The translations under genes were made by a program, and so were the position numbers. From Candidatus Dormiibacterota bacterium (GTDB lineage: Bacteria > Chloroflexota > Dormibacteria > CF-121): DNA of 64,000 nucleotides. The DNA lies in NCBI GenBank assembly GCA_036269255.1, contig DATASI010000121.1:7875-71874 (forward strand). Reading direction: 5' to 3'. Numbering within the stretch: the stretch's first letter is position 1; each line of letters starts with the position of its first letter. The notes beneath the pieces were generated by a model. The model was not told the DNA's origin, made no database searches, and worked only from the letters and a program-made list of their open reading frames with translations. Shown one piece after another: positions 4,162 to 24,799 of the stretch.

Positions 4162-4181
4162 CGATCCACCTCCTCGGAGGA

Positions 4182-4544
4182 TCATACGACGCGATTCGGG
4201 TCGTACAGCCAGTTCAAGCCGAGGCCCAGCACGGCGATGACGAACGCCATCACCAGGATCAAGAGCAGCGCGCGGCCGGCGGATCGAATCATCGGCGGGT
4301 GATGCTCGAGCGGCCGCGACCGATCGAACCAGATGGTCCAGATGGCGAGAGGCAGTATCGGTGCACAGCGCAGGGCGATGCGAAGGAGGGGACTGGGCGC
4401 GGCGAAGGCGGCGATGACGTACAGCGCTGCGACGCCGACGAGGGGAACTCCCACCCCGACCCTTCCCCAAAGGGGGAGGGAGCTGAAAACGCTAGTAGGT
4501 CTCCAGGTAGGCGTCGAGCTCCCAGGCGCTGACCTGTTTCTCAT
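4182..4544 (-). CDS. Possible small hydrophobic membrane protein downstream of the GS-like gene
   Basis: An ORF with 2-3 hydrophobic helices and no homology recognised. Its 5' end overlaps the GS-like stop, so the true start is probably internal. Confidence 0.2.
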   Translation of the reverse strand: MRNRSAPGSSTPTWRPTSVFSSLPLWGRVGVGVPLVGVAALYVIAAFAAPSPLLRIALRCAPILPLAIWTIWFDRSRPLEHHPPMIRSAGRALLLILVMAFVIAVLGLGLNWLYDPNRVV

Positions 4545-5805: not shown

Positions 5806-5845
5806 CGCCCGCTCGATCGCCGGCGACGCGCTGCGGGCGCCGGTC

Positions 5846-5971
5846 TCAGTCTTCGGCGTCGGGGACTCCGCGGTGATCGGAGCTCAGCGGGCGGTCAGGG
5901 TCGTCCCAGGACGGTCCGGGGCGGGGATGATCGCCGGGTCGCCAGGGCTTGTCTTTCAACGGCTCTTCCAT
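5846..5971 (-). CDS. Possible 41-aa acidic Pro-rich small ORF between the two GS genes
   Basis: ATG with GAGGAG about 8 nt upstream. The product is MEEPLKDKPWRPGDHPRPGPSWDDPDRPLSSDHRGVPDAED, low-complexity with no homology. Confidence 0.15.
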   Translation of the reverse strand: MEEPLKDKPWRPGDHPRPGPSWDDPDRPLSSDHRGVPDAED

Positions 5972-6050
5972 CGCGTGCTCCTCTTCGGTAGATGAGAGAC
6001 GGCTGCCAGGGCGAGTGACAGCCGCCTCGATGTCGGACGAACCAGCCGAA

Positions 6051-7508
6051 CTAGATGTCGTGGTAGAGGTAGAACTCCCAGGGGTGCGGTCGGAGCGCGA
6101 CCTGGTCGTACTCCCGAACGCGCTTGTAGTCAATCCAGGTCTCGATCAGGTCTTCGGTGAAGACGCCGCCCCGCGTCAGGTATTCGTTGTCGATCTCGAG
6201 GGCGTCGAGCACCTCGAGCAGCGATCCCGGCGTGCTCTTGACCTGCCGCTTCAGCTCCGGCTCGAGCTCGTAGAGATCCTCATCGATCGGCTTCGGCGGC
6301 TCGATTTTGTTGATGACCCCGTCCAGGCCGGCCATCAGGCAGGCTGCGAACGACAAATAGGGATTGCAGGACGGATCCGGCGTGCGGAACTCCAGGCGCT
6401 TCGCCTTCGGATTGTCGAAGTACATCGGAATGCGGATGCAGGCGCTGCGATTGCGCTTCGAGTAGATGAGGTTGATCGGCGCCTCATAGCCCGGAACCAA
6501 CCGCCGGTAGGAGTTGGTCGTGGGCGCGGCAAAGGCCAGCAGCGACGGCGCGTGCTTCAGCAGGCCGCCGATGTACCAGCGGCACATGTCGCTGATCCCG
6601 GCATAGCCGGCCTTGTCGTAGAAGAGCGGCTCGCCGTCTTTCCACAGGCTCTGATGGGTGTGCATCCCCGACCCGTTGTCCATGAAGAGCGGCTTGGGCA
6701 TGAAGGTCGCGACGAAGCCGTTCTGGGCGCAGACGTTCTTGACGATGTACTTGTAGAGCATGACCTGGTCGGCCATCTTGAGCAGCGTTCCGAAACGCAT
6801 GTCGATCTCGGTCTGCCCGGCGGTGCCGACCTCATGGTGATGGACTTCCACCTCGATGCCGGCCTCGATCAGCTTGAGCACGATCTGCGAGCGCAGGTCC
6901 TGCAGCTTGTCGGTGGGCGGCACCGGGAAGTAGCCCTCCTTGAATCGCGGCCGATAGGCAAGGTTGGGCTCGCCGTTCTTGGCCGAATTCCACACCCCCT
7001 CCACCGAGTCGATCTCGTACATGCCTGAGAACTGGTTCTGGTCGAAGCGCATGCTGTTGAAGATGTAGAACTCGCATTCCGGGCCCCAAAAGCTGGTGTC
7101 GGCGATCCCGGTCGACCCCAGGTAGGCTTCGGCCTTCTTCGCGACGTAGCGAGGATCGCGCGAGTAGGGCTCGCGGGTGATCGGATCGATGACGTCGCAG
7201 ACGAGATTCAAGGTCGGCACCCGGAGCACGGGATCGACGATCGCCGTCGAGGGGTCGGGCATCAGCAGCATGTCGCTCTCGTGGATGTGTTGGAAGCCGC
7301 GGATGCTGGATCCGTCGAAGCCGATGCCGTCGCTGAAGAGGCTTTTGCTCAGCTCCTGCACCGGGATCGAGAAATGCTGCCAGGTGCCGATCAGGTCGAC
7401 GAACTTGAGATCGACGATCTTGAGGCCCTGCTTCTGAGCCATGTCGATGACGGCCTGCGCGTCCGCCTTCGTTTCTTTCCTGGCGCGCACGCCCTGATCA
7501 ATCGCCAT
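6051..7508 (-). CDS. glnA: Glutamine synthetase type I
   Basis: 485 aa with classic GSI motifs (…FDGSSIRGF…, [34 protein letters not shown]…[15 protein letters not shown]). Confidence 0.92.
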
Positions 7509-7631
7509 AAATACCGTCCCTCCGTGCTACGAAGTAATCCGACGCTCTCGATGCTAGGGGCGACGATTCACCCTGTCATCGGGCCGCAACGACGACTTCC
7601 GGCCCCGATTTTTGTGCGCCGCGCCCAATCG

Positions 7632-8360
7632 TCAGCTGCTTGGGCTGGCGGAGGGGGCGGGCGTCGCCGAGGGGGCTGCGCTAAGCCGGTCGAGCGTCAG
7701 CGTGTAGCCGCTGGACGGCGGATCGATGCCCACCGAAAGCACGAAGTCGTCCCTGGTGAAGCGGAGAATTGGCGTGGTCGCCGAGGTCTTGTCCTCGGCC
7801 CACCCGAGGCGGGCCAGCTCGCGCTCGTAAAAGGGCACGATGCTGTTCAGGTTGTTGGCGGCGATGTCCTCCGATATGCTCTCGGTGCCCTGGAGGCCGG
7901 GCGTCTCGTCGAGCAGCCGGGTGCCGGGTGGCCGGGGTAGCGAGTCCATCACGGGCCGGGTCAGGTGGGTGTCGGCGCCGCTGAGCACGGCAGACACGCT
8001 GGCGTTCTCGATCAGTCCGTAGATGGCGAGCAGGCCCAGCAGTGCCGTGAAGACGGAAGCCGCGATGGTCACGACGAGATGTCCTCGGAGTCCCTCGCGA
8101 TACCGACGCCAGCCGACGGGCAGCAGCAAGCCAAGCGTGAGCAGCGCCAGACCAAGCACGCCGGCGGCCAGCAGCTCGAACCATGCCCCGGGCATGTAGT
8201 CCGCAAGCTGATCGGCGGCGAGGAGGGTGAGGGACAGTGACCCGGCATAAAGCAGCGACACGCCGGGCACGACCCAAGGCCGCGCGGCCGACGCGACAGC
8301 CGGCAGCGGAACGACCGCTTGGCTGAGCCGGCGGTCTATGCGCCGGCGGCTTGCTCCCAC
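7632..8360 (-). CDS. Hypothetical membrane protein with a Pro/Ala/Ser-rich C-terminus
   Basis: Several TM helices followed by an extracytoplasmic segment and a PA/S-rich tail. It overlaps the ABC-F stop by 25 bp, so the start may be internal. Confidence 0.45.
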   Translation of the reverse strand: MGASRRRIDRRLSQAVVPLPAVASAARPWVVPGVSLLYAGSLSLTLLAADQLADYMPGAWFELLAAGVLGLALLTLGLLLPVGWRRYREGLRGHLVVTIAASVFTALLGLLAIYGLIENASVSAVLSGADTHLTRPVMDSLPRPPGTRLLDETPGLQGTESISEDIAANNLNSIVPFYERELARLGWAEDKTSATTPILRFTRDDFVLSVGIDPPSSGYTLTLDRLSAAPSATPAPSASPSS

Positions 8361-10180
8361 TCCTGGTAGAGCCAGCGCAGCCGGCGGCTGGCGTCCTCGT
8401 GGGCGCGCGACAGCTCGGCGACCAGCGCGGGATCGTCATAGGTCTGGTGGTCGGCCAGGCGCTCTTCGATCTGGTGGATCTCGGTTTCAAGGCCGTCGAT
8501 CTGATCCTCAACCGGAACCGCGGGTTTCACGACGGCGGCCGCACGGGTCGCTGTCGTGCGCCGTCCCTCCTCGGCCAGGGGGCGTCGCGTCCGCTGGCGG
8601 GCCCGTTCCCAGTCGCTGTAGTTGCCCAGATGCATGCTGACGGTGCCGTCCTCGACCACCCAGAGCCGCGTCGCCACGTCGTCGATGAAGTAGCGGTCGT
8701 GGGACACGAACACGATGGTGCCCTCGTAGTCGTTGAGCGCATCTTCGAGCATTTCCTGCGCCGGGATGTCGAGGTGGTTGGTCGGCTCGTCGAGCATCAG
8801 CAGGCCGGCATCGTCGAGCATCAGCTTGGCGAGCGCGACCCGGCTCTTCTCGCCGCCGCTCAAGGAGCGGATCGCCTTGAACGCGTCGTCGCCGCTGAAC
8901 AGCAGCCGGCCGAGGAAGGTTCGCAGCGTTTCCTCGGGAAGCCCGAACGCATCCTGCAGCTCGCCGATGACGGTCTTGTTCGGATCGAGATCGGCGAGAT
9001 TCTGATCGTAGTAGCGCATCGCGACTCGGGGACCGGTCTTGACCCGCCCCTGCAAGGGCCGCAATTCTCCCAGCAGCGCTTTCAGCAGGCTGGTCTTGCC
9101 GGAGCCATTTGGTCCGACGATCGCCACCCGCTCGCCGGCGCTGACGGTGAACGCGGGAACGGAGACGATCTCGCGCTTGTCGTATCCGACGCGCAACCCT
9201 TCGCTCTGAAAGATGAGCTCGCTGGTGACGGAGGCCCGCAGCCGGATCCGAATCTGCTGATCCTCGGCCGGGGGTGCCACCCGTGCCAGGCGATCGAGCT
9301 TGGTCTGGCGCCCGCGCGCCTCACGCGCCCGCTGCCCGGCTTTATAGCGGCGGATGAACTCCTGGGTGCGGGCGATGTACTCCTGCTGCGCCTCGTACTC
9401 CTTCTGCCGCACCGCGCGCCGCTCCTGCCGCAGCCGGACGTACTGCCGATAGTTGCCCGGATACCATTCCCCGCCACCGGCCTGCAGCTCGAGGATGTCA
9501 TCCGCGACGTGCTCCAGGAACCGCCGGTCGTGGGAAACGATCAGCATGCCGGCGCGCGAGAGACGGAGAAACCCTTCCAGCCATTCGATCGCCTCCAGGT
9601 CGAGATGGTTGGTCGGCTCGTCCAGCAGGAGCAGGTCGGCGTCCTGCAGCAGGAGCCGGGCCAGCGCCAGCCGGCGGCGCTGGCCTCCGCTCAAGGCGGC
9701 GGGCGCCAGGGCCTGGTCGGTTTCGGAAAGCCCGACGCCGTGGAGGACCTCGGCGACCCGGCTGTCATAGGCATAGCCGTCGAGGCGCTCGTACTCGTGC
9801 TGAACCTCGCCATAATCTTCGACCAGGCGTGCCAATGACTCGGCTTGGGCGCCGGCCATGGACGATTCCAGCTGCTCGAGCTTGCGGCGGAGCTCCATGA
9901 TGTCCGGGCGGCTGTGTAGCGCGTCCGCGTAGACACTCTCATGCGGACCGGCCTCCAGCTCTTGCGGCAGGTAGGCGAGCCGCGCTCTAGGCGCCAGGCT
10001 GACGGAGCCCGCCGTCGTCGGGACGTCGCCGGTAATGGCCCTGAGCAGGCTGGTCTTGCCGGTGCCGTTGGCGCCCACGATGCCCAGCCGCTGGCGCGGT
10101 TCGAGCTGGAACGTCAATTCTCGGAGGACCTCTTCGGCTCCATACAGGAGGGAAAGTCGCTCCACGCGAAGCACGGGCAT
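8336..10180 (-). CDS. ABC-F family ATPase (tandem ABC domains; Uup/EttA-like translation factor)
   Basis: Two complete nucleotide-binding domains (GANGTGKTS…LSGGQRRRLALARLL…LLLLDEPTNHLD and GPNGSGKTS…LSGGEKSRVALAKLM…LLMLDEPTNHLD) with a charged linker. The start is set at the internal ATG 10180 (MPVLRVERLSL); the track's 45-aa N-terminal extension has no homology. Confidence 0.88.
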   Translation of the reverse strand: MPVLRVERLSLLYGAEEVLRELTFQLEPRQRLGIVGANGTGKTSLLRAITGDVPTTAGSVSLAPRARLAYLPQELEAGPHESVYADALHSRPDIMELRRKLEQLESSMAGAQAESLARLVEDYGEVQHEYERLDGYAYDSRVAEVLHGVGLSETDQALAPAALSGGQRRRLALARLLLQDADLLLLDEPTNHLDLEAIEWLEGFLRLSRAGMLIVSHDRRFLEHVADDILELQAGGGEWYPGNYRQYVRLRQERRAVRQKEYEAQQEYIARTQEFIRRYKAGQRAREARGRQTKLDRLARVAPPAEDQQIRIRLRASVTSELIFQSEGLRVGYDKREIVSVPAFTVSAGERVAIVGPNGSGKTSLLKALLGELRPLQGRVKTGPRVAMRYYDQNLADLDPNKTVIGELQDAFGLPEETLRTFLGRLLFSGDDAFKAIRSLSGGEKSRVALAKLMLDDAGLLMLDEPTNHLDIPAQEMLEDALNDYEGTIVFVSHDRYFIDDVATRLWVVEDGTVSMHLGNYSDWERARQRTRRPLAEEGRRTTATRAAAVVKPAVPVEDQIDGLETEIHQIEERLADHQTYDDPALVAELSRAHEDASRRLRWLYQEWEQAAGA

Positions 10181-14065: not shown

Positions 14066-14428
14066 GTGATCGCGACCATGCGGCAGGCCGTCGCGCGCCG
14101 GGTCGAGGCGGTTGCCAGGAAGGAGGTCTCGACCGGAAAGAAGGCGCTGATCCTGATCGGCTTCTGCGTCGCGCAGCTGCTGGATGTCACGACCACCCAC
14201 ATCGGCTTGTCGCAGGGGCGCCAGGAGCTGAATGGAGCGGCTGCCTGGATCATTGGCCACAACGGCGAGGCCGCCGTCTATGCCCTCAAGCTTGGACTGG
14301 TCGCCGTCCTCGTCGGGTTTTTGCTGGTCTTCGGCCGCCGGCGCTCCGGCATCTGGAACGCCTACCTGGTGGCCGCCTGGATCACGACCTTCGCCGTCGT
14401 CAATAACATCTATCGCATCCTGAGCTAG
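14066..14428 (+). CDS. Small integral membrane protein (DUF5658-like pattern)
   Basis: 120 aa with 3-4 TM helices and an LLDVTTTHIGL motif reminiscent of DUF5658. Confidence 0.4.
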   Translation: MIATMRQAVARRVEAVARKEVSTGKKALILIGFCVAQLLDVTTTHIGLSQGRQELNGAAAWIIGHNGEAAVYALKLGLVAVLVGFLLVFGRRRSGIWNAYLVAAWITTFAVVNNIYRILS

Positions 14429-14464
14429 CCGCTCACACCAGTCTTCGCCAGGTGGCGAAGAGCG

Positions 14465-14941
14465 ATGTCCCTCAAGGGCTACATTGACCTGATGACCAGC
14501 GCCGCCGTCACCTTTGGCCAAATCTTGACGCCGCTTTTTTTCTATGTGGTGATCGCCGCCTATGTGGCCTTCGTGATCGCCTCTGCCTGGCAGTTTTCGC
14601 GGCGTCCCGAGCCAGGACGGATCATGCGCGGCCTCAACCTGACGGTGGTCCCGCTCGGGGTGCTGGTCGCCCTCGTGGGCGTGCTCGCCGCCAGCGTCAA
14701 CGCCTTCAATCAACAGGAAGGAACGCCCAGCAACAAGTGGGCGATCGTGATGGTGGCCCTTGGGTTCGGGCTCTCGTCGCTGGTGCTGGCCGTCGAGGGA
14801 TTCATCCTTCGCGGCCGGATCGCGGCATCTCCCGAAGAGCGGCGGGCGATCGGCATGCGCAGCCTGAGCCTGATTGCGACTACGGTTCCGCTGGTCATCC
14901 TCGGCGGGCTTTTTTTGGCCCTGGCCATCCGCATCGGCTGA
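14465..14941 (+). CDS. Hypothetical integral membrane protein
   Basis: 158 aa with 4 predicted TM helices and no homology recognised. Confidence 0.45.
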   Translation: MSLKGYIDLMTSAAVTFGQILTPLFFYVVIAAYVAFVIASAWQFSRRPEPGRIMRGLNLTVVPLGVLVALVGVLAASVNAFNQQEGTPSNKWAIVMVALGFGLSSLVLAVEGFILRGRIAASPEERRAIGMRSLSLIATTVPLVILGGLFLALAIRIG

Positions 14942-14982
14942 GCTATATTTGACCGGTTCGATCAACTATTAGAGGGCGACGC

Positions 14983-15444
14983 ATGCGCATGCGCTTCTCG
15001 ATGAAAACCGAATACGGTGTCCGCGCCATCCTCGAGCTGGCCGCGAACGCCGGCCGGGGCACGCTGCAGAGCGCCGAGATCGCTCGGCGGCAGGCGATTC
15101 CCGGGCCGTTCCTCGACCAGGTGCTGATGACGCTGCGCCGCGCCGGCATGATCTCCTCGACGCGAGGGCCGCATGGCGGCCACGCCATCGCGCGGCGGCC
15201 CGATGAGATCCGTCTCGACGAGGTGCTGGATTGCCTGGAGGGAAACGGCCGTGAGGCTCGCGATGGCCACCGTCCGGTTGGCGATGCGCTGGTGCTCGCC
15301 CAGGTGACCGAGCAGGCCGAATCGGCTGCGCGACAGGTGTTCGCCGCCCACACGCTGGCTGACTGCCTGCGCTTGCGGCCGCAGCAGCCGGCGGTCTTTC
15401 ACGGGATCTTCCATCCGGCACGTGGCCGGTCTAAAGGTGCCTGA
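14983..15444 (+). CDS. Rrf2-family transcriptional regulator (non-Fe-S, CymR/NsrR-like)
   Basis: Rrf2 wHTH N-terminus (MKTEYGVRAILELA…SAEIARRQAIPGPFLDQVLMTLRRAGMISSTRGPHGGHAIAR). Only one Cys is present, so it lacks the three-Cys cluster ligands. The start could be ATG 14983, 14989 or 15001. The TGA overlaps the ATG of the next gene. Confidence 0.8.
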   Translation: MRMRFSMKTEYGVRAILELAANAGRGTLQSAEIARRQAIPGPFLDQVLMTLRRAGMISSTRGPHGGHAIARRPDEIRLDEVLDCLEGNGREARDGHRPVGDALVLAQVTEQAESAARQVFAAHTLADCLRLRPQQPAVFHGIFHPARGRSKGA

Positions 15445-16247
15445 TGGCGTCGCTCACTGCACAGCAGCGTCAGCGGTATGCGCGACACCTTAGCCTGGCC
15501 GAAATCGGTGAGGCCGGCCAGCAGCGACTGCTTCGCGCTCGCGTCTTGATCGTCGGCGTCGGCGCGCTCGGCTCGCCCGCCGCGCTATACCTCGCCGCCG
15601 CGGGCGTTGGCACCCTGGGATTGGCGGATCACGATCGAGTGCGGCTCTCCAACCTGCAGCGCCAGGTGATCCATTCGATCGATGGCGTGAACCGCGCCAA
15701 AGTCGAGGTCGCCGGCCAGACGCTACGCCGCCTGAACCCCGAGCTGACCATCGAGACGATCGAGGCCGCCGTCGACGAGCGAAACGCGCTCGAGTTGCTC
15801 GGGCGCTTCGACGCCATCGTCGATGGCACCGACACCTTCCGCGCCCGCTACCTGCTGAGCGACGCGGCCTACTTCCTGGGCAAGCCGCTGGTTCACGGCA
15901 GCATCTTCCGGGTCGAGGGGCAGGTCACCGTCTTCAAGCCCGGCTTCGGTTGTTACCGCTGCCTCTATCCCGAGCCGCCTCCGCCCGGTGCCATCGAAGA
16001 TTCGGAAGAGGTGGGGGTGTTCGCTCCGCTCGCCGGCATCATCGGAACCATCGAGGCGGCCGAAACCATCAAGCTATTGACCGGTGTCGGTGACGTCCTG
16101 GTCAACCTGGTGTTGCTGCACGACAGCATGGCGATGAGCTTTCGCGAGGTACGGTACCGGCGCAACCCTGCCTGTCCCGTCTGTGGTGATCGACCGTCGG
16201 TGCGCCGCCTGATCGACTACGACGCGTTCGTCGGAGCGGCGCGATGA
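15444..16247 (+). CDS. ThiF/MoeB/HesA-family E1-like adenylyltransferase (copy 1)
   Basis: RYARHLSLAEIGEAGQQRL, the GVGALGSPAALYLAAAGVG Rossmann/ATP loop, and Zn-motif pairs CYRC…CPVC. The stop/start overlaps both neighbouring genes. Confidence 0.85.
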   Translation: MASLTAQQRQRYARHLSLAEIGEAGQQRLLRARVLIVGVGALGSPAALYLAAAGVGTLGLADHDRVRLSNLQRQVIHSIDGVNRAKVEVAGQTLRRLNPELTIETIEAAVDERNALELLGRFDAIVDGTDTFRARYLLSDAAYFLGKPLVHGSIFRVEGQVTVFKPGFGCYRCLYPEPPPPGAIEDSEEVGVFAPLAGIIGTIEAAETIKLLTGVGDVLVNLVLLHDSMAMSFREVRYRRNPACPVCGDRPSVRRLIDYDAFVGAAR

Positions 16248-17041
16248 ACGACCAGCGCCACCATCGCCAGCGCATCCTGGCCGAGATTGGCGAGCAGGGT
16301 CAGCGGCGCCTTGCCTCCGCCTCCGTGGCGATCGTCGGCGTCGGCGGACTGGGATCGCCGGCGGCCCTGTACCTGGCGAGTGCCGGCGTTGGCCGCATCG
16401 CATTGATCGACGACCAGCGAATCGATCGATCCAACCTCAACCGCCAGGTGCTTTACGGCGAGGCTGATATCGGCCGGCCGAAGGTCGAGGTCGCGGCGCA
16501 GCGGCTGCGCGCCATCGACTCCTCGATTGCGATCGAGCCAAGGCAGGAGAGCGTCAGCGCGGGAAACGTCGAGGCGCTCTTCGCCGCGTACGACCTGGTG
16601 CTCGATGGCACGGATGCGTTCGAGACCAAGTTCCTGCTCAACGACGCCGCGGTGCTGGCGCACAAACCGCTGGTGCACGGCGCGGTCCTGCAGTGGGGAG
16701 GCCAGGTACTGACCGTCCTCCCCGGCGGACCATGCCTGCGCTGCCTCTTCCGCGAGCCGCCCGAGCCGGATGCGGTGCAGAGCTGCGAGCAGGCCGGCAT
16801 CCTGGGGGCAACCGCCGGCATTGTCGGGAGCGTCCAGGCGGAGGAAGCGATCAAGCTGCTGCTCGGAGTTGGCGCGCCGCTTTCGGGTCGAATCTACCAG
16901 CACGACGGACTCATCGGCGAGACGCGGATCACCGCCTTCGGTCGCGATCCAAGCTGTCCCGCATGCTCGGACAAGGCCAGCATCACGCGGATGTCGGCGT
17001 ACGCGGAACAGGTCTCGGCTCGGGGCCACCTGCTGGTCTGA
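16244..17041 (+). CDS. ThiF/MoeB/HesA-family E1-like adenylyltransferase (copy 2)
   Basis: HRQRILAEIGEQGQRRL, GVGGLGSPAALYLASAGVG, and Zn-motif pairs CLRC…CPAC. ATGA overlap with copy 1 upstream and TGATG overlap with the MTAP gene downstream. Confidence 0.85.
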   Translation: MNDQRHHRQRILAEIGEQGQRRLASASVAIVGVGGLGSPAALYLASAGVGRIALIDDQRIDRSNLNRQVLYGEADIGRPKVEVAAQRLRAIDSSIAIEPRQESVSAGNVEALFAAYDLVLDGTDAFETKFLLNDAAVLAHKPLVHGAVLQWGGQVLTVLPGGPCLRCLFREPPEPDAVQSCEQAGILGATAGIVGSVQAEEAIKLLLGVGAPLSGRIYQHDGLIGETRITAFGRDPSCPACSDKASITRMSAYAEQVSARGHLLV

Positions 17042-17841
17042 TGCCTGCCCGGGCGGAGATCGGCGTCTTCGGCGGCTCCGGCTTTTATGAGTGGCTGGGC
17101 GCCAGCGAGCCGGTGACGGTCGACACGCCGTACGGGCAGCCGAGCGGCCCGATTGCGATCGCGGAGCTGGCGGGGCGCCGGGTTGCGTTTCTCGCGCGCC
17201 ATGGGCCCAAGCACACCATCCCGCCGCCGCAGGTCAACTACCGGGCGAACGTCTGGGCGATGCGCGAGCTGGGCGTGGAACGGATCATCGGACCCTCCGC
17301 CGTCGGCAGCCTGCAGCCGTCGCTGAAGCCCGGCGACCTGGTCGTCGCCGACCAGTTCATCGACCGAACGACCGGGCGGGCCGACACCTATTACGTCGGA
17401 CCGGAGGTTGTCCACGTCAGCGCCGCCGACCCCTACTGTCCCGAGCTGCGAGCGCTGGCCGCCCGGGTGGCCGTAGACCAGTCGCTGCGATTTCAGGACC
17501 ATGGAACGGTCGTCGTCGTCCAGGGTCCTCGCTTTTCGACCCGGGCCGAGAGCCGATGGTACTCGGGAATGGGCTGGGACATCATTGGCATGACCCAGTA
17601 TCCCGAGGTGATCCTCGCCCGGGAGCAGGAGATGTGTTACCTGAACCTCTCGCTGGTGACGGACTACGACGCCGGGCTTGCGGACGCTCCGGAGGTGGGC
17701 GCGGTCCAGGCGCAGGACGTCATCCGGGTGCTCGCGGAGAACATCTTCAGGGTGCGGGCGCTGCTGGCGGCCCTCATACCCCTGATCCCGCCGGTCCGCA
17801 CCTGCCCCTGCCCGCACGCGCTCGAAGGGGCCAGGGTTTGA
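17041..17841 (+). CDS. mtnP: S-methyl-5'-thioadenosine phosphorylase (PNP/MTAP family)
   Basis: Start at the internal ATG 17041 (MPARAEIGVFGGSGFY…). MTAP-like motifs are present (…RHGPKHTIPPPQVNYRANVWAMRELGV…IGMTQYPEV…). The ORF-track upstream extension is spurious and overlaps the ThiF gene. Confidence 0.85.
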   Translation: MPARAEIGVFGGSGFYEWLGASEPVTVDTPYGQPSGPIAIAELAGRRVAFLARHGPKHTIPPPQVNYRANVWAMRELGVERIIGPSAVGSLQPSLKPGDLVVADQFIDRTTGRADTYYVGPEVVHVSAADPYCPELRALAARVAVDQSLRFQDHGTVVVVQGPRFSTRAESRWYSGMGWDIIGMTQYPEVILAREQEMCYLNLSLVTDYDAGLADAPEVGAVQAQDVIRVLAENIFRVRALLAALIPLIPPVRTCPCPHALEGARV

Positions 17842-17851
17842 GCAAAGAAAA

Positions 17852-17875
17852 AGGCCGAGATTGGGGTCTCGGCCT
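17852..17875. terminator. GC-rich hairpin downstream of the MTAP operon
   Basis: A 9-bp stem AGGCCGAGA-ttgggg-TCTCGGCCT is preceded by an A-run (a T-run on the opposite strand). It may be a bidirectional or I-shaped terminator. Confidence 0.4.
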
Positions 17876-17998
17876 TCAAGGAAGGGGAAGCGGGACTCAC
17901 GATACGGCGGGCCTGTTAAGGACCAGTGAAGGGGCGGTAACGGGCGTGTCACGGGCCCAATTCGACGCCCGTTCGGGCGTCGGGTATAGTCCGCACGA

Positions 17999-19096
17999 GT
18001 GAAGGTGCTGATCACCGGTGGAGCCGGCTTCATCGGCCAGCGGACCGCGCAGCTCTTGCTCAAGCAGGGCCACCAGGTCACGGTTCTCGACAACCTGGCG
18101 CCGCCCGCCCACGACGGGCCGCCGGCGCTCCCGGCCGGGATGGAGCTGGTCGAGGGGGACGTGCGCAAGCGCGAGGACTGGGTCAAGGCGATCAAGGACA
18201 ACGAGGTCGTCCTCCACCTGGCCGATCACCACGATTACCTGCCATCGTTCAGCAAGCTTTTCCACGTCAATGCCGTGGGCGCCGGCATTCTCTTCGAGCT
18301 GTTGCTGGACCGCAAGACATCGGTGCGACGGGTCGTCCTCGGGTCCTCGACGGCGGTCTATGGTGAGGGGAAGTATCGCTGCGGAAAGGATGGTGACGTC
18401 TATCCGCATCCGCGGACGGTCGAGGCGCTGGAGCGCGCCATGTGGGATCCGCCATGTCCGATCTGTGGCGGCGCGATCAGCCCGATGGTCACCGACGAAT
18501 CGGTCACCCGCCCGACCAGCGCCTACGGGCTGAGCAAGCTGGCCCAGGAAGACCTCCTGCGGCTGGTGGGAGAGCGCCAGGGGATCGAGTGGGTCATCCT
18601 CCGATATGGGGCCGTCCAGGGCCGGCCGCAGCCGTTCCAGAACGCCTACTTCGGCGCGCTGCGGATCTTCGCCTTGAGGCTCGCGCACAATCAGCCGCCG
18701 ATGCTGCTGGAGGACGGCAACCAGCTGCGCGATTTTGTCGACGTCGAGGACGTGGCGCGGGCCAACCTGACCGCGCTCGGCGACCTCCCCGTCGGCACCT
18801 ACAACGTCGCCAGTGGACGGGCGCATACCCTCATGGACCTGGCGCGCACGCTGCTGCGCGCGGCCAACCGCGACCTGTTACCGGAAACGCCGGGACGCTA
18901 TCGCGTTGGAGACGCCAGGCATGTGGTGCCGGATGTCAGCCGGCTCAAGGCGGCCGGCTGGGAAGCGCAGCTGGGGCTCGAGGCGATGGCGCGCGGCTAC
19001 TGGCAATGGCTGAGCGAGCAGACCAACCTGGATACCTATTTCGAAGGGGCGGAATACTTGATGGAGCGCACCGGAACCGTTCGCGTGTCGCGATGA
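17999..19096 (+). CDS. NAD-dependent epimerase/dehydratase (extended SDR) with a Cys-containing insertion
   Basis: The GGAGFIG N-terminal Rossmann motif and the YGLSK catalytic Y-x3-K are present. There is an inserted segment …YRCGKDG…DPPCPICGG…. Confidence 0.82.
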   Translation: MKVLITGGAGFIGQRTAQLLLKQGHQVTVLDNLAPPAHDGPPALPAGMELVEGDVRKREDWVKAIKDNEVVLHLADHHDYLPSFSKLFHVNAVGAGILFELLLDRKTSVRRVVLGSSTAVYGEGKYRCGKDGDVYPHPRTVEALERAMWDPPCPICGGAISPMVTDESVTRPTSAYGLSKLAQEDLLRLVGERQGIEWVILRYGAVQGRPQPFQNAYFGALRIFALRLAHNQPPMLLEDGNQLRDFVDVEDVARANLTALGDLPVGTYNVASGRAHTLMDLARTLLRAANRDLLPETPGRYRVGDARHVVPDVSRLKAAGWEAQLGLEAMARGYWQWLSEQTNLDTYFEGAEYLMERTGTVRVSR

Positions 19097-19635
19097 CCCA
19101 GGGCGCGACCCGACGCTTTCCCATCCGCTACTCGATCCAGCGCTGGAACGACGGCGTCTGGTTCTACGGCAGCTTTTTGGTCATCCTCGTGGTGCTGACC
19201 GCCGGCAAGCTGATCGCGCATCAGAGCATCGTGTCGTTCGTCCCGGTGCTCGTGCTCGACGCCGGCATCCTGCTGGCGTTCTGGCTGATGAGGCTGCTGT
19301 CATACGTCGAGGTGCTGGACGACGCCGTTCGCATCCGCTACATCACGCGGCGCATGGATCTTCCCTATGCAGCCCTTTCCCGCGTCCGGCGTCAGCCGCT
19401 GGAGGTTGCCTTTCAGCCGGCGGAGCGGCGGCGCTTCGTCAACCGCTTTGTGCGGCGGCTGGGCCGCCAACCGGCAGCCTACCTTCGGCTCGACCGTCGA
19501 CAGGACAACCTGGTCGAGCAGGCGGAACGACGGCTTGGGCCGCGCCTCGTTGCCGGGGCAGACATCGTGGTGCCGATCATCGGTGTCGATGAATTTCTGA
19601 GCGAGGTCAAGCTCCGCCTCCGCGGGAGCACGTGA
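19093..19635 (+). CDS. Hypothetical membrane protein
   Basis: ATGA overlap with the epimerase stop. The product is about 180 aa with 2 TM helices near the N-terminus and an Arg-rich C-terminal domain. The ORF-track 5' extension is spurious. Confidence 0.5.
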   Translation: MTQGATRRFPIRYSIQRWNDGVWFYGSFLVILVVLTAGKLIAHQSIVSFVPVLVLDAGILLAFWLMRLLSYVEVLDDAVRIRYITRRMDLPYAALSRVRRQPLEVAFQPAERRRFVNRFVRRLGRQPAAYLRLDRRQDNLVEQAERRLGPRLVAGADIVVPIIGVDEFLSEVKLRLRGST

Positions 19636-19675
19636 TCCAGACAGCCTGGCCTGACGGCCCGTTGCTTATGGGCAG

Positions 19676-21295
19676 ATGACACAAACAGCCATCCACGCAC
19701 AGAAGCGGGCAGCATGGTGGCGGATCGACCGGCAGGATCTCTACTGGTTGCTGGCGCTGACCCTGGTTGCCGGCTTCCTGCGCTTTGCCAGCCCGATCTT
19801 TCTGGACGTCTTCAGCCATCCAACCAGCGCCGCGCCAGTCAGCGCCTGGGGCATCGGCCATAACTACCAGGACCCCAAGATCGCGGGACTGGGGAAGCCG
19901 AATCAGATCGCGCCATCCTCGCCCTTCGTCTTCGACGAGCTGTACTTCGCGAACGACGCGCACGACGATATCCTGGGCCGCGATTATTTCGATCCCGAGC
20001 CGCCACTGGCGAAATTGATCATCGCCGTCGGAGAGGTCCTCTTCGGGTTCAACTCCTTCGGCTGGCGGGTGATGGTGGGGCTGTTCGGGACCGCGATGGT
20101 GCCCTTGATGTACCTGCTGGCTCGGCAGCTCCTGGCGGTGCGCTTCTTCGCGATCGCCGCCGGGGTGCTGACGGTCTTCGACGGCATGCTGTTCGTGGAA
20201 TCGCGGACCGCCGTGATCGACATCATTCCGATCGCGCTGACCGTGCTGGTCTACCTGATATTTCATCTGCACCTCAACGCCGACACCTCCGTGCGCCAGC
20301 GCTGGACGATCGTCCTCACCGGCATTCTTATGGGGCTGGCGATCGGTGCCAAGTGGACGGCGATCGCCGCCTACGGCGTCATCATCGCGATCCTGGCGTT
20401 CCGGCTGATCGCCGGCTGGACCCGATACGATCGGCGCACCCTTGGCACGGCGGTGCTCAGCCTGGGGCTGCTCCCGGTGATCTTCTACTCGTTGACCTTC
20501 ATCCGCTACCTGATGATCGAGCACTCGATCACGAGCCTGCCGCAGCCCCCGCTCGCCTTCGCGCCCTTCCATTTCAACCCGGGCGCTGCCTGGACGGACA
20601 TCGCCGAATGGCACCGGCAGACCTGGCTCTATCACATCAACCTGAAGGCCGATCACATCTTCTACAGCCCCTGGTGGAGCTGGCCGCTCGACTTCCGGCC
20701 GGTCGTCTACTACTTCACCAACACCGGGCTGGGCGTTGACCAGTCGACCGGCTCGGCACTGGTCGGCGAGATCTTCAATCTCGGTAACCCGCTGGCCTGG
20801 TGGGGCGGGACCTTCTCGCTGATCGGGCTCGGGATCGGGCTGCCCTGGCTGATCCGCGATTACCGGAGCCGCCGTCGGGCGCAGGGTGCCAGCATCGAAG
20901 GGGCAGACGAGGCGGGACCGGTTGATCAGCGGCTCTATGCATCGCTTTTCTTGTTGACCGCCTTTGTGGCCGCCTGGTTACCGCTGTCGCGCATCCCTCG
21001 CGGACTCTTCCTTTATCACATGCTGGGCGGCCTTCCCGCGATGCTGCTTGCCCTGGCGCTGAGCCTCACCTACCTCAGGTCGTTGAGCGGCGTGCGACCA
21101 GGATTTGCCGCGCGGCTCAGCGGCGCGGTGCCCGCCTACGCCTTCCTGTTGATGGTGATCGCCTTCTTTTTCTACTTCTATCCGCTCTGGACCGGGTTGC
21201 CGCTCACCTCCGACGCGCTCAATGGCCACATCTGGTTTGCCTTCGTCAAACCGTGGCCCAACTGGTGCCTCTGCTACTGGACGAATCCGGGCTAG
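19676..21295 (+). CDS. pmt: Dolichyl/polyprenyl-phosphate-mannose protein O-mannosyltransferase (PMT/GT39 family)
   Basis: Loop-1 DE motif (PFVFDELYFANDAHD), an EPPLAKLIIA motif and multiple TM helices in a GT-C fold. Confidence 0.8.
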   Translation: MTQTAIHAQKRAAWWRIDRQDLYWLLALTLVAGFLRFASPIFLDVFSHPTSAAPVSAWGIGHNYQDPKIAGLGKPNQIAPSSPFVFDELYFANDAHDDILGRDYFDPEPPLAKLIIAVGEVLFGFNSFGWRVMVGLFGTAMVPLMYLLARQLLAVRFFAIAAGVLTVFDGMLFVESRTAVIDIIPIALTVLVYLIFHLHLNADTSVRQRWTIVLTGILMGLAIGAKWTAIAAYGVIIAILAFRLIAGWTRYDRRTLGTAVLSLGLLPVIFYSLTFIRYLMIEHSITSLPQPPLAFAPFHFNPGAAWTDIAEWHRQTWLYHINLKADHIFYSPWWSWPLDFRPVVYYFTNTGLGVDQSTGSALVGEIFNLGNPLAWWGGTFSLIGLGIGLPWLIRDYRSRRRAQGASIEGADEAGPVDQRLYASLFLLTAFVAAWLPLSRIPRGLFLYHMLGGLPAMLLALALSLTYLRSLSGVRPGFAARLSGAVPAYAFLLMVIAFFFYFYPLWTGLPLTSDALNGHIWFAFVKPWPNWCLCYWTNPG

Positions 21296-23232
21296 CGCTC
21301 GTCGCCGGCGGCCTCGTCCTGGGCCTGGGCCTGGCATGGGGAGGGCCGCCCTGGCTCACCGTCGGCGAACGACTGGTGATCGGGATGGTTCTCTCGGTGG
21401 TGAGCCTCACCGTCGGCGGTTACCTGCTGGCGCTGGCGATCGGCATCACGCCCGGCCTGGTGCTGCTACTGGCGGCCGCCGGACTTCTCGGAGGTGGCCT
21501 GCTGCTCGCCCGTCATCGCGGACGGATCGGGCGTGAGGTCCGTCATTTCCGCGAGGAGTTCGTGCTCCACGACCTGGCGCTCCCGGCCGCGGTCGTCGTC
21601 ATCGCGCTCGCGCTCGGCTACCTCTTCGCCCGAGCCGTGGAGATCACCCCCGATGCCTGGCTGAGCCACTACAACAACACGTGGTCGGACTGGTCGTTGC
21701 ATGCCGGCTACGCGACGAGCTTCGTCTACGGGCACAATCTGCCACCTCAGAATCCGCTTTACGCGGGTACGCCCTTCCGCTATCCCCTGGCGCCCGACTT
21801 CGCCAGCTCGATGTTGATCGGTGGTGGCTGGAACATCCCCGCGGCGCTAGCCTGGCCGGGCTGGGCGATGACGGTGCTCGCGCTCAGCGGGCTCATCCTT
21901 TGGGCTCGCCGGCTGACCGGCGGCGTGAGCGCCGGCGTGATCGCCGTCAGCCTGACGCTGCTTGGGGGTGGCGTCGGCTTCTGGTTCTTTTTCGGTGATG
22001 CGGCCCACCTGGGCCTGCTCAACACGCTGCTCCACATTCCTCGGAGCTACGACCGCTTCGACCCGCCCGTCAATATTCAGTGGTACAACCCGATCCTTTC
22101 GTACTACCTGCCGCAACGAACCTTCGTGTTCGGGGCGGCGATGGTGCTGGCGATCGTGTTGCTGATCACGCCGCCCGTTCTACGCACACCCTTCTTTCAA
22201 TGGCGGACAACGCTGGCGACACTCAGCCACTCCTGGCAGCGGCCCGTCTTCAAGAGCGAGGCGGTGGCGTTCGCGGTCGCCGGTGTCGTGGCGGGGCTCT
22301 TGCCCTGGTTTCACGTTCACAGCCTGGTGGCGGTCGGATTGGTGGCGGCCGGCTGGGCGCTCTGTTACCCGCGCCCGGCCTGGATCGGGTTCTTCGCCGC
22401 GATGCTCGTGCTCGCCGTGCCCCGGTTGCTGCTGTCGGTTCCCGGCGACGCCGGCCTGTCCCCGGATCACCAGTACCCTCGCTGGCTGATTGGCTGGATG
22501 TCCGGCGCAGATTCTCCGGTCTGGTTCTGGATCAAGAACACCGGGCTCTTCTGGCCGCTGCTGCTGGTGGCCCTGCTGAGCCCGCTGGCGCTGAACCGGC
22601 GCGCGCGCCTTCTGATTGCGCCGTTCAGCCTGGTGTTCCTGATCGCCAACCTCATCAAGTTCCAGCCGTGGGATTGGGACAACACCAAGCTGCTCGTCTT
22701 CTGGTACCTGGGGAGCGCGGTCGCCGTCGGAGCGCTGCTCGCGCGAATCTGGCGGGCCGGCGTGGCCGGCGGCCTGCTGGCCGGCGCCGGCTGGATCACG
22801 CTGGTCGCCTCCGGGGTGCTCTCGCTGCTGCAGGTGCTCCCGCCGCAGGGCCCGAGCTACGGGTGGTTTTCGAGCGAGGAGGTGCAGCTCGCCGCGCAGG
22901 TGCGGACGGCGACGCCGGCAAAGGCGACCTTCGTCACCGGCGAGGAGCCGAACAATCCGATTGCCGACCTCGCGGGCCGCTCGGTGCTGATCAGCTATCC
23001 GGGGTGGCTGTGGAGCTATGGCATCAACTACGCCCAACGGGAAGCGGACCTGACTCGCATCTACTCGGGAGGCTCTGCGGCACTGGCGCTGCTCCACCAG
23101 TATCACGCCGAGTATCTCGTGGTCGGCCCCAGCGAGCGCGCGACTCTGCGCCCCAACCTCGATTACTTCAATGCGAACTTCCGGCTGGTGCTGCAAAGCC
23201 CGAACTACCAGATCTACCAGGTGCCTCGATGA
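21253..23232 (+). CDS. Large polytopic membrane protein, possibly a GT-C-type glycosyltransferase
   Basis: 659 aa with at least 12 TM helices and conserved-looking loops (WSDWSLHAGYATSFVYGHNLPPQNPLYAG). The start is uncertain; GTG 21253 overlaps pmt by 43 nt. Confidence 0.55.
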   Translation: MAQLVPLLLDESGLALVAGGLVLGLGLAWGGPPWLTVGERLVIGMVLSVVSLTVGGYLLALAIGITPGLVLLLAAAGLLGGGLLLARHRGRIGREVRHFREEFVLHDLALPAAVVVIALALGYLFARAVEITPDAWLSHYNNTWSDWSLHAGYATSFVYGHNLPPQNPLYAGTPFRYPLAPDFASSMLIGGGWNIPAALAWPGWAMTVLALSGLILWARRLTGGVSAGVIAVSLTLLGGGVGFWFFFGDAAHLGLLNTLLHIPRSYDRFDPPVNIQWYNPILSYYLPQRTFVFGAAMVLAIVLLITPPVLRTPFFQWRTTLATLSHSWQRPVFKSEAVAFAVAGVVAGLLPWFHVHSLVAVGLVAAGWALCYPRPAWIGFFAAMLVLAVPRLLLSVPGDAGLSPDHQYPRWLIGWMSGADSPVWFWIKNTGLFWPLLLVALLSPLALNRRARLLIAPFSLVFLIANLIKFQPWDWDNTKLLVFWYLGSAVAVGALLARIWRAGVAGGLLAGAGWITLVASGVLSLLQVLPPQGPSYGWFSSEEVQLAAQVRTATPAKATFVTGEEPNNPIADLAGRSVLISYPGWLWSYGINYAQREADLTRIYSGGSAALALLHQYHAEYLVVGPSERATLRPNLDYFNANFRLVLQSPNYQIYQVPR

Positions 23233-23294
23233 GCCCCCACCCTACCCTCCCCCGCAAGCGGGGGAGGGAAACTGAAGGTCCCTAGAATGCAGCC

Positions 23295-23636
23295 GTGCTG
23301 ACCCGCTTCCTGATCCATATCGTCTCGCTGCTGTTCGTCTTCTATGTCATCTGGCACGTCCACACCGGGATCCTTGGCGCCGCCGTGGTGATGGCCCTCA
23401 TCCTGGCCGTGATCAACACCATCATCCGTCCGGTGCTGATCATGCTCACGCTGCCTGTCACGATCCTGACGCTGGGGCTCTTTGTCGTCATCCTCAACGC
23501 GCTGCTGTTCGCGCTTGCCTTTGCGGTGCTGCAGGGGCTGATGAACGTCCACTTCGACGTGAGCTTCGCCCAGATCGTGCTCGGCTACCTGATCTACGTC
23601 GTCATCAGCATGGTGCTGACGCGGTTGTTCCGCTAA
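23295..23636 (+). CDS. Small membrane protein of the phage-holin-4_2 / YvlD-like family
   Basis: 113 aa with four TM helices and a characteristic NTIIRPVLIMLTLPVTILTLGLFVVILNALLF motif. Confidence 0.55.
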   Translation: MLTRFLIHIVSLLFVFYVIWHVHTGILGAAVVMALILAVINTIIRPVLIMLTLPVTILTLGLFVVILNALLFALAFAVLQGLMNVHFDVSFAQIVLGYLIYVVISMVLTRLFR

Positions 23637-24799
23637 AAGGCCCAGTAACCCCGGCCGAAGGCGAGACCGAAGACGACGAAGGCGACGAGGGATCCGGCAA
23701 CCATCGTCAGATAGAGCCAGCGACTCTCGATCCGCCCGACCAGCAGGAACAGCGGATACATCGCCAGCAGGTACCGCGGGATGCTGAGCCAGAAGGGAAG
23801 AAAGGTCACCATCACCGTCAGCACGGTGGCGTAGACCGCATCCGACGGTCGCAGCCGGAGCCAGCTGAGTGCCGAGACCGCATAGGCGGTGAGCCCGCCG
23901 GCAAGCTCGCCCCCGCCCACGGTGAGCTTCTCCCAGGGAATTCGCCAGCCGATGCTGCTGACGGCGGTCGCGAATCCCACCCAGGGGGCGGCGAGCGCGT
24001 GCGACCAGTGCTCGCGTTGCACGCTGACGAACGCGAACGGGTTTCCGAGCACGAGCTGATTGGTCACAAGATAGGTGGCGAAGCCGAGCACGATCAGGAC
24101 CCCGGCACCCAGCGGCTGCCAGGCCCGGCGCAACGACGGGCGTCCGATCAGCAGCTCGGCCGCGAGAAAGGGGAGCAGGGCCACGCCGGTGAGGCGGGTG
24201 GCGGCGGACAGGCCGCCCAGGATGCCCGACGCGATCCAACGGCGGTGCCGGGCCGCCAGCACGGCGGCGAATGAGAGCGCGCAGAACAGCGCCTCGGTGT
24301 AGCCGACGAGCAGGAAATAGGCGGTCGGGAAAAGGGTGAAGAAGGCGGCGGCGCGGAAGGCGGCTCTGGCATCGCGATCCAGGCGGGCGATCTCATAGAG
24401 GAGGACGGCGGCGGCGACCCCGGCGACATTGCTCACCAGCAGCGCCGCCAGGCGGAGTGGCAGCCCGGCGGTTGCCAGTGCGCCAACCAGCGCCGGGTAG
24501 AGGGGAAAGAACGCGATCAGGTTGCGGGCGTCGCCTGTCGCGCGGTAACCGTTGGCGGCGAGAAAAAGGTAGTGCCTGGCATCCCACTGGTCCCAGCTCC
24601 GGCCGAGGGCCGTCAGGGGGTCCGGGTCCGATCCATAGGCGAGCAGGGTCAGGACCGTCAGCAGCACCTTGACCAGCAGCGCGAGGATCAGCAGGTTGAT
24701 CCAGTCGCGCGGAATCCGCCCCAGGACGCTCGCTGCCGTTAAGGTTCGGGTACGATGCTGCGGCAACAGGCCTTCGGCCGGCTGGCGGCTTGAGCTCAC
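23633..24799 (-). CDS. Membrane mannosyltransferase of the PIG-V/GT76-like family (DUF2029-type)
   Basis: HYLFLAANGY and FFPLYP motifs with multiple TM helices. The 5' end overlaps the divergent IMPase ORF-track start. Confidence 0.6.
   Translation of the reverse strand: MSSSRQPAEGLLPQHRTRTLTAASVLGRIPRDWINLLILALLVKVLLTVLTLLAYGSDPDPLTALGRSWDQWDARHYLFLAANGYRATGDARNLIAFFPLYPALVGALATAGLPLRLAALLVSNVAGVAAAVLLYEIARLDRDARAAFRAAAFFTLFPTAYFLLVGYTEALFCALSFAAVLAARHRRWIASGILGGLSAATRLTGVALLPFLAAELLIGRPSLRRAWQPLGAGVLIVLGFATYLVTNQLVLGNPFAFVSVQREHWSHALAAPWVGFATAVSSIGWRIPWEKLTVGGGELAGGLTAYAVSALSWLRLRPSDAVYATVLTVMVTFLPFWLSIPRYLLAMYPLFLLVGRIESRWLYLTMVAGSLVAFVVFGLAFGRGYWAF

Follow-up and report, generated by a model that had tools for sequence, protein, structure and literature searches.

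The subject of this analysis is a four-gene operon on the plus strand of a 64-kb stretch of DNA (the whole stretch is referred to as the window) from a soil-dwelling member of the candidate phylum Dormibacterota. The operon encodes, in this order, an Rrf2-family regulator, two E1-like adenylyltransferases named here ThiF-1 and ThiF-2, and an S-methyl-5'-thioadenosine (MTA) phosphorylase (MTAP). The genes and the elements flanking them are the following, with lengths in nucleotides (nt) or amino acids (aa):

14944-14972, + strand: conserved 29-nt upstream block TATATTTGACCGGTTCGATCAACTATTAG, candidate promoter and/or Rrf2 operator
14983-15444, + strand: Rrf2-family transcriptional regulator, first gene of the operon, 153 aa (PF02082, TIGR00738)
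15444-16247, + strand: ThiF-1, MoeB/ThiF-class E1-like adenylyltransferase, 267 aa (PF00899, NF004281)
16244-17041, + strand: ThiF-2, second MoeB/ThiF-class E1-like adenylyltransferase, 265 aa (PF00899)
17041-17841, + strand: MTAP (MtnP), 266 aa (NF005876, TIGR01694, PF01048)
17850-17877: GC-rich hairpin with an 11-pair stem (GGCCGAGA-loop-TCTCGGCC), directly 3' of the MTAP stop

The original prediction, made from the letters of the window, had described four genes overlapping at TGATG, ATGA and TGATG junctions, and this layout was borne out at 14983-17841, as were, by Pfam and NCBIfam profiles, the identities of the four products. The A of the Rrf2/ThiF-1 junction TGATG is common to the stop TGA (15442-15444) and the ATG (15444), the same is true of the ThiF-2/MTAP junction TGATG (stop TGA at 17039-17041, ATG at 17041), and stop and start overlap as ATGA at 16244-16247 between the two E1 genes. 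Because overlaps are common in this genome, accounting for 9 of the 38 same-strand junctions in the window, three of them in a row support co-transcription and do not by themselves show a shared pathway. The hairpin at 17850-17877 probably marks the end of the transcription unit; its T-run lies on the minus-strand side, so that we infer its terminator function on the plus strand. A separate promoter-like site at 17962-17990 precedes the next gene, an epimerase starting at 17999, and together with the hairpin after MTAP it delimits a unit of four genes.

Both E1s were confirmed as paralogues of about 265 aa carrying two zinc-binding CxxC pairs each, as had been proposed. ThiF-1 matched PF00899 with 246 bits over profile positions 1-238 of 238 and ThiF-2 with 254 bits over positions 2-237 of 238; this is the only domain in either protein, a rhodanese domain being present in neither, and the two are 46% identical. 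The GxGxxG motif, the Arg finger R14, K86, D130 and the two zinc CxxC pairs are present in both, ThiF-1 keeping R11, R14, K86, D130 and its four zinc cysteines. These residues are invariant in the ThiF-1 homologue sets, whether of the window type or from the extended lineages described below, and nearly invariant in the ThiF2 proteins linked to LarE, while those of the window-type ThiF-2 clade were checked visually in a small number of aligned sequences only. ThiF-1 narrowly passed the MoeB subfamily profile NF004281 (271.4 bits, cutoff 266), which ThiF-2 failed (229.1 bits); ThiF-2 stayed under every NCBIfam cutoff, its second-highest score relative to cutoff being that against the ThiF equivalog TIGR02356 (247 bits, cutoff 275). 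In a search of a representative library ThiF-1 sat within the very large MoeB/MoeZ family (33,843 matches), with no special subfamily delimited, and an exact-match look-up of its sequence returned no record. Homologues occur in public assemblies labelled Candidatus Dormibacteraeota or 'Chloroflexi bacterium', and the NCBI name for those of ThiF-1 is MoeB.

It had also been proposed to place the two enzymes among the MoeZ/CysO-activating, TcdA or MccB-like clades. Profile scores put both of them in the MoeB/MoeZ/UbaA class, and several narrower identities were ruled out. MoeZ was discarded because its C-terminal rhodanese domain is absent and the profile NF005902 (cutoff 647) gave 283 bits for ThiF-1 and 236 for ThiF-2; the MccB/PaaA class because the N-terminal peptide clamp is absent and no PDB match to MccB was obtained at E<=1e-20; and TcdA because the two scores, 59 and 66 bits, lie far below its cutoff of 304. 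Domain content and scores likewise ruled out a reading as ubiquitin-like conjugation.

The same scores lend some weight to a rival account of the operon, in which an ordinary housekeeping MoeB, for molybdopterin synthase sulfuration, and an ordinary ThiF, for thiazole synthesis, are simply neighbours and MTAP is carried along with them. ThiF-1 exceeds the MoeB cutoff and has homologues that carry the name MoeB, ThiF-2 reaches 247 bits where the ThiF cutoff is 275, and both align over their full length to E. coli MoeB and ThiF with near-equal scores (40-43% identity in a trimmed alignment). No riboswitch for thiamine pyrophosphate (TPP), molybdenum cofactor (Moco) or S-adenosylmethionine (SAM) was found in the window, and the lack of the first two counts against this account.

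The absence of a ubiquitin-like carrier, a rhodanese or a JAMM protein near the operon, noted at the outset, held across the 64-kb window, in which no ThiS/MoaD-type carrier, rhodanese, JAMM or CysM was found. The recommended check for short open reading frames (ORFs) with a GG tail was run on frames of 50-130 aa and returned from the window nothing except a spurious ORF at 3946-4302 without Pfam match. Profile hidden Markov models of the genes met at related loci (carriers, JAB, pyridoxal-phosphate (PLP)-dependent enzymes, TusA, NIL, rhodanese, NifS, MetY) gave no match against a six-frame translation of the window, and LarE, LarB, LarC, LarA, a DsrE-like gene and NadA were likewise missing from it.

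Comparison with other Dormibacterota loci (designated here by L numbers) separates two arrangements, one compact and one extended. The loci L001-L008, whose ThiF-1 is 67-99% identical to that of the window, carry the same four genes, and since the whole 20-kb neighbourhood is collinear in these close relatives, the four-gene synteny is uninformative there. Deeper lineages of the phylum were found by searching with the E1 of L009, and their gene orders, with coordinates on their own sequences, are as follows:

L009: Rrf2-ThiF1 only
L090: Rrf2-ThiF1-(164 aa)-NadA-FGGY-PMT
L089 (9522-13379): Rrf2-ThiF1-three small ORFs-LarE-ThiF2, no MTAP
L091 (9522-18315): Rrf2-ThiF1-three small ORFs-LarE-ThiF2, a reverse-strand gene, NadA, a GGDEF/EAL gene, MTAP, ECH, FGGY
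L086 (9540-16317): Rrf2-ThiF1-(290-aa product)-LarE-ThiF2-(196 aa)-NadA-MTAP-ECH-FGGY-PMT

In L086 the small ORFs were predicted as a single product of 290 aa. All five of these loci retain the Rrf2-ThiF1 junction, and conservation of the gene order, which had been suggested as a test, was found in part: the four-gene order is shared within one sublineage and the Rrf2-ThiF1 pair more widely, while the MTAP portion fails in the deeper relatives. In L086, L089 and L091 the start of ThiF2 overlaps the stop of LarE, which is identified at equivalog level (TIGR00268, 272-289 bits, cutoff 150) and shows a CxxC...C pattern. Two of the small ORFs are DsrE/DsrF-like, with one match that exceeds the Pfam cutoff and otherwise weak ones; the third was placed in DsrH/TusB by no profile, the likeness lying in its size, position and C-terminal Trp only. 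Our literature search returned no paper linking LarE to E1-like enzymes, no described LarE-ThiF-DsrE cluster and no usable reconstruction of Dormibacterota cofactor metabolism. A different association was met in L092 (6620-16580), where Rrf2 is followed by three small ORFs, the first faintly DsrE-like, by a ThiF2-like E1 and then by a CoxSLM-like molybdenum hydroxylase set that includes CoxD/E-like genes, XdhC and MocA. Molybdenum hydroxylase genes also lie near the E1 in L087. The context of L092 hints that this type of E1 can be tied to Moco enzymes, and both loci count in favour of the housekeeping MoeB and ThiF account.

The sublineage of the window shows two derived changes, one in a loop residue of ThiF-1 and one, described below, in the cluster ligands of the regulator. 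The cross-over loop cysteine (MoeB C187, ThiF C184) is Ser188 in ThiF-1 (IEDSEEVGV) and is present in ThiF-2 (VQSCEQAGI). In 120 close homologues of ThiF-1 the position holds Ser (113), Ala (5) or Pro (2), and never Cys; the cysteine is kept in 69 of the 75 ThiF1 proteins of other Dormibacterota lineages, in 120/120 LarE-linked ThiF2, in the 4 window-type ThiF2 inspected and, among diverse representatives of the family, in 139 of 150 (~93%). Its loss tracks the compact sublineage. The idea that ThiF-1 had lost the cysteine wherever a ThiF-2 is present was dropped, given that L086, L089 and L091 combine a ThiF-2 with a Cys-bearing ThiF-1. In E. coli, ThiF reportedly uses the loop cysteine to form an acyl-disulfide with ThiS, and the residue is said to be dispensable in MoeB. 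ThiF-1 would thus form no covalent E1-carrier intermediate and might catalyze adenylation only, as E. coli MoeB does; the missing cysteine also counts against the housekeeping account.

The loss of this cysteine and the translational coupling of the two genes suggest a possible obligate E1 heteromer in this sublineage, in which the Cys-less ThiF-1 would provide adenylation or an Arg finger in trans and the Cys-bearing ThiF-2 the covalent step, by analogy to the heterodimeric E1s of eukaryotes. The cysteine was lost in the ThiF-1 clade that has the compact arrangement (adjacency inspected in L001-L008 only), ThiF-1 and ThiF-2 are translationally coupled through ATGA, and enzymes of the MoeB/ThiF type are said to be dimers with a trans-acting Arg (MoeB-MoaD, PDB 1JW9). 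Against this, both proteins have complete ATP-binding, catalytic and zinc residues, which sets them apart from the degenerate subunit found in eukaryotic E1 heterodimers, and E. coli MoeB reportedly does not need the loop cysteine.

Phylogeny adds to these objections. In a neighbour-joining tree of 99 sequences and 244 columns with 300 bootstraps, all Dormibacterota ThiF1, that is, the Rrf2-adjacent E1s, formed one clade (300/300), within which the compact and extended groups were sisters. The window-type ThiF2 grouped with the LarE-linked ThiF2 of L086, L089 and L091 in 235 of 300 replicates (78%), sharing with them five residues rare elsewhere, and ThiF1 and ThiF2 appeared as sisters in one replicate of 300. 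ThiF-2 hence groups with the LarE-linked E1 and not with ThiF-1, which makes it an old paralogue and not a recent tandem copy. We consider an obligate heteromer quite unlikely.

A scan of species-representative genomes with ThiF-1 recovered 75 loci outside Dormibacterota, at 45-56% identity, whose neighbouring genes were clustered and the clusters named by Pfam. Counting genes up to 4 kb from the E1, a ThiS-family carrier was present at 39 of the 75 loci, a PLP-dependent CysM-like enzyme at 32, a JAB/Mec+ protease at 27 and an Rrf2 regulator at 19, and TusA, NIL, MetY, rhodanese and NifS were also among the neighbours. These relatives, the closest outside the phylum, lie mostly within thiocarboxylate-type cysteine or sulfate-assimilation clusters. 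MTAP was near none of the 75 loci, and neither MoaE nor ThiG was recurrent among 73 otherwise unclassified neighbours. Two clusters illustrate the setting. A ThiS-ThiF fusion (P0333), 60% identical to the E1 of L009, is encoded in L088 (6267-12554) in the order Rrf2-PALP-sulfite reductase-TusA-PAPS reductase-fusion-DsrE/DsrE/DsrH-TusA (PAPS, 3'-phosphoadenosine-5'-phosphosulfate), and L093 has the order ThiF-TusA...JAB-ThiS-PAPS reductase-ATP sulfurylase-sulfite reductase. The recurrence of Rrf2 together with carrier, PLP enzyme and JAB contexts across phyla indicates that the Rrf2-E1 pair is a widely distributed module for bringing sulfur into cysteine or methionine by the thiocarboxylate route, of which the mycobacterial CysO/CysM/Mec+/MoeZR system is the prototype.

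These contexts count against the housekeeping MoeB and ThiF account, for in about 90 related loci no moaD/moaE or thiS/thiG neighbour recurs, and the prevailing company is that of cysteine and sulfate-assimilation clusters for ThiF-1 and of LarE and DsrE-like genes for ThiF-2. In its favour, E1s are known that serve more than one carrier and are encoded apart from the carrier genes (PMC3227635), and it overlaps with the sulfur-trafficking reading given below if the E1s serve several carriers. We judge it unlikely.

Three further observations concern the out-of-phylum relatives. The family P0326-P0342 consists of ThiS-ThiF fusions of ~364 aa with the carrier at the N-terminus of the E1. Gemmatimonadota loci L020, L021, L028, L039, L054 and L063 (~7500-9800) show Rrf2 and MoeZ (an E1 plus rhodanese of ~380 aa) as a bare pair ahead of SmpB, again without a carrier in the vicinity; this pair is another regulator-E1 module standing alone. 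In Nitrospirota (L051, L058, L064, L065, L067 and L082, ~5000-9500) each cluster holds two E1-like genes along with two distinct ThiS-family carriers, two PLP enzymes, a NIL-domain protein and a JAB protease, and may represent two parallel thiocarboxylate routes.

Taken together, we read the four genes as a sulfur-trafficking operon, probably the condensed form of a larger cluster conserved in Dormibacterota, and assign to this reading a probability of about 0.55. Known systems of sulfur-carrier activation are represented here by a variant specific to this lineage and not by a new kind of pathway, so that the undescribed pathway postulated in the original prediction was not substantiated. ThiF-1 is likely the orthologue of the Rrf2-linked E1 of thiocarboxylate cysteine or methionine synthesis and sulfate assimilation in other phyla, and ThiF-2 that of the E1 translationally coupled, in other Dormibacterota, to the sulfur insertase LarE of the [4Fe-4S] type and to DsrE-like relay proteins, as judged from sequence relationships. 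From the intact catalytic residues and the family context it can be proposed that each of them binds Mg-ATP and adenylates the C-terminal Gly of a ThiS/MoaD/CysO-type beta-grasp carrier encoded elsewhere. Since neither has a rhodanese domain, a separate persulfide donor, also encoded elsewhere, would be expected to turn the acyl-adenylate into a thiocarboxylate. ThiF-1 would most likely serve cysteine or methionine synthesis and possibly Moco, and ThiF-2 might meet the needs of a LarE/DsrE-like relay or of Moco enzymes.

Several points weigh against this sulfur-trafficking reading. Carrier, persulfide donor and acceptor enzyme were found neither in the window nor within 10 kb at any Dormibacterota locus, so that the central substrate is assumed and not seen. 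The grouping of ThiF2 with the LarE-linked E1s has 78% support only, in a distance tree with long branches, and as ThiF1 of the compact and of the extended type form sister clades, the compact order may have arisen by deletion or the extended one by insertion. Lacking a loop cysteine that ~93% of its relatives have, ThiF-1 may differ from them in its chemistry. Finally, MTAP is joined to ThiF-2 by a translationally coupled junction that persists in relatives with as little as 67% ThiF-1 identity (L008), which makes selection for co-expression possible.

The MTAP itself, with 337.1 bits against NF005876 (cutoff 306), 290.9 bits against TIGR01694 (cutoff 274.85) and a match to PF01048, is by score an ordinary methionine-salvage enzyme. 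Its gene directly abuts the E1 in the compact sublineage only; L086 and L091 carry it 2-4 kb downstream, past NadA and, in L091, past the reverse-strand gene and the GGDEF/EAL gene, and none is near the E1 in L089, L090 or L009. Several lineages share the genes that follow (ECH, FGGY, PMT, mannosyltransferase), which identifies MTAP as belonging to a chromosomal backbone that is conserved. Its place as fourth cistron probably came about upon loss of the intervening genes for the DsrE-like proteins, LarE, the 196-aa protein and NadA, this being the direction of change that we infer. At most, MTAP might stand under common sulfur-amino-acid regulation with the E1s, comparable to mtnN in the CymR regulon of Bacillus.

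The coupling to MTAP had been read as a sign that one and the same process involves the making or using up of MTA, and this claim found no support, as the linkage is gone in deeper Dormibacterota and at 75 of 75 out-of-phylum loci. A pathway built on it, in which carrier-less E1s would act on a non-protein or peptide substrate while MTA is made or consumed, could appeal to the lack of a nearby carrier in every Dormibacterota locus and to an overlapping MTAP junction kept across the compact sublineage. It is very improbable nonetheless, since beyond the lost linkage the operon holds no SAM-using enzyme, and the E1s (265-267 aa) amount to a bare MoeB fold that lacks the clamp of MccB/PaaA and falls far below the TcdA cutoff. 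Improbable, too, is a composite scheme in which an obligate heteromer of Cys-less ThiF-1 and Cys-bearing ThiF-2 descends from an undescribed Rrf2-E1-DsrE-like-LarE-E1 relay feeding LarE, a cluster-type insertase that forms a thiocarboxylate, and in which co-transcription with MTAP would reflect a real metabolic link and not a decay of gene order.

As a separate observation, the MTAP has a C-terminal C-P-C motif (T-C-P-C-P-H, 17803-17811), in the same place as GCGC in L086 and SCSC in L091. A C-terminal CXC disulfide motif has been described for hyperthermophilic archaeal MTAPs.

The regulator matched PF02082 with 93 bits and TIGR00738 with 103 bits (cutoff 73), and remained under the NCBIfam cutoffs for CymR, IscR, NsrR and RirA. 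It had been called a non-Fe-S, CymR-like protein suggestive of sulfur-metabolite control. The first attribute proved correct, as the three ligand cysteines of its orthologues (C-x7-8-C-x5-C) are gone from the window protein; the motif is absent from the regulators of L001, L003 and L006 as well and, independently, from those of L009 and L090, and is present in those of L086, L089, L091 and L088 and in the out-of-phylum orthologues. Sulfur-metabolite control fits the sulfur-cluster context of the orthologous Rrf2-E1 pairs, but membership in CymR fails, the equivalog NF047409 giving 63.1 bits against a cutoff of 195 over the N-terminal half only, and 'CymR-like' is therefore to be understood as analogy. 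The candidate role of the block at 14944-14972 as promoter or Rrf2 operator is suggested by an imperfect inverted repeat, TTGAC (14949-14953) N8 TCAAC (14962-14966), whose half-sites are invariant in 6/6 Dormibacterota loci with the compact operon, and by a sigma-70-like match at 14922-14949. Rrf2 would probably repress its own operon at this TTGAC-N8-TCAAC block.

Comparison with known systems places these features in perspective. In Mycobacterium tuberculosis MoeZR serves CysO for cysteine synthesis and MoaD for Moco synthesis, its paralogue MoeBR serves only MoaD, and their genes are unlinked to the carriers (PMC3227635). The Dormibacterota operon resembles the CysO-CysM-Mec+ system of that organism in having two MoeB/MoeZ-class E1 paralogues unlinked to carriers, and in the type of cluster that surrounds the nearest out-of-phylum relatives of ThiF-1; it differs in that an Rrf2 gene heads the operon, a rhodanese domain is absent, ThiF-1 lacks the loop cysteine, and CysO, CysM and Mec+ are missing from the 64 kb. 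E. coli MoeB and ThiF (PDB 1JW9, 1ZUD) are alike in length, fold class and ATP, Mg and zinc residues, in addition to their 40-43% identity, whereas the window E1s lie outside moa or thi operons and ThiF-1 has no equivalent of C187/C184. With the CymR regulon of Bacillus, which covers genes of cysteine metabolism and in which CymR represses yrrT-mtnN-mccAB (PMC3519770), the operon shares the grouping of a non-Fe-S Rrf2 regulator with an MTA-cleaving enzyme; here the enzyme is a phosphorylase and not the nucleosidase MtnN, the partners are E1-like and not transsulfuration enzymes, and the regulation is putative. The iscR-iscSUA operon likewise has an Rrf2 gene as the first cistron of a sulfur-trafficking unit that it presumably controls, and orthologous regulators in other lineages resemble it in keeping the three-Cys motif; that of the window differs in having lost the ligands and in having E1-like enzymes as presumed targets. 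As for the LarE/nickel-pincer nucleotide system, orthologues of ThiF-2 overlap a CxxC...C LarE in three Dormibacterota lineages, with NadA close by in two, and the window has none of the four Lar genes sought.

The result is mostly corrective, since what looked like an orphan E1-E1-MTAP 'pathway' is better read as sulfur-carrier activation and methionine salvage joined by cluster rearrangement. The Rrf2-E1 module, present in several phyla, offers a handle on the regulation of thiocarboxylate-dependent sulfur assimilation, and its altered form in an abundant soil lineage, with the Rrf2 Fe-S ligands and the E1 loop cysteine lost and DsrE-like and LarE genes absent from the locus, looks like a natural rewiring experiment. 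Of greatest interest for further study is a cluster not found in the window itself, the E1-DsrE-like-LarE-E1 arrangement of the sister lineages, which could bear on the sulfur supply to cluster-type LarE.

Some features of the surrounding DNA complete the description of the window. Just upstream of the operon and on the same strand, 14066-14941 encodes two small membrane proteins, one with DUF5658 (120 aa) and one of 158 aa without family, which are syntenic with the operon in the compact sublineage only; a terminator-like hairpin (14887-14908) lies within the 3' end of the second gene. Downstream, 17999-24799 is a glycosylation block comprising the NAD-dependent epimerase, a PMT-family protein O-mannosyltransferase, a 659-aa membrane protein, a holin-like protein and Mannosyl_trans2, found again across Dormibacterota lineages (L090:10745-16752) and similar to actinobacterial mannosylation loci. 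On the minus strand, 4492-7508 contains tandem glutamine synthetase genes (437 and 485 aa), a pair that also occurs in L001 and L003-L005.

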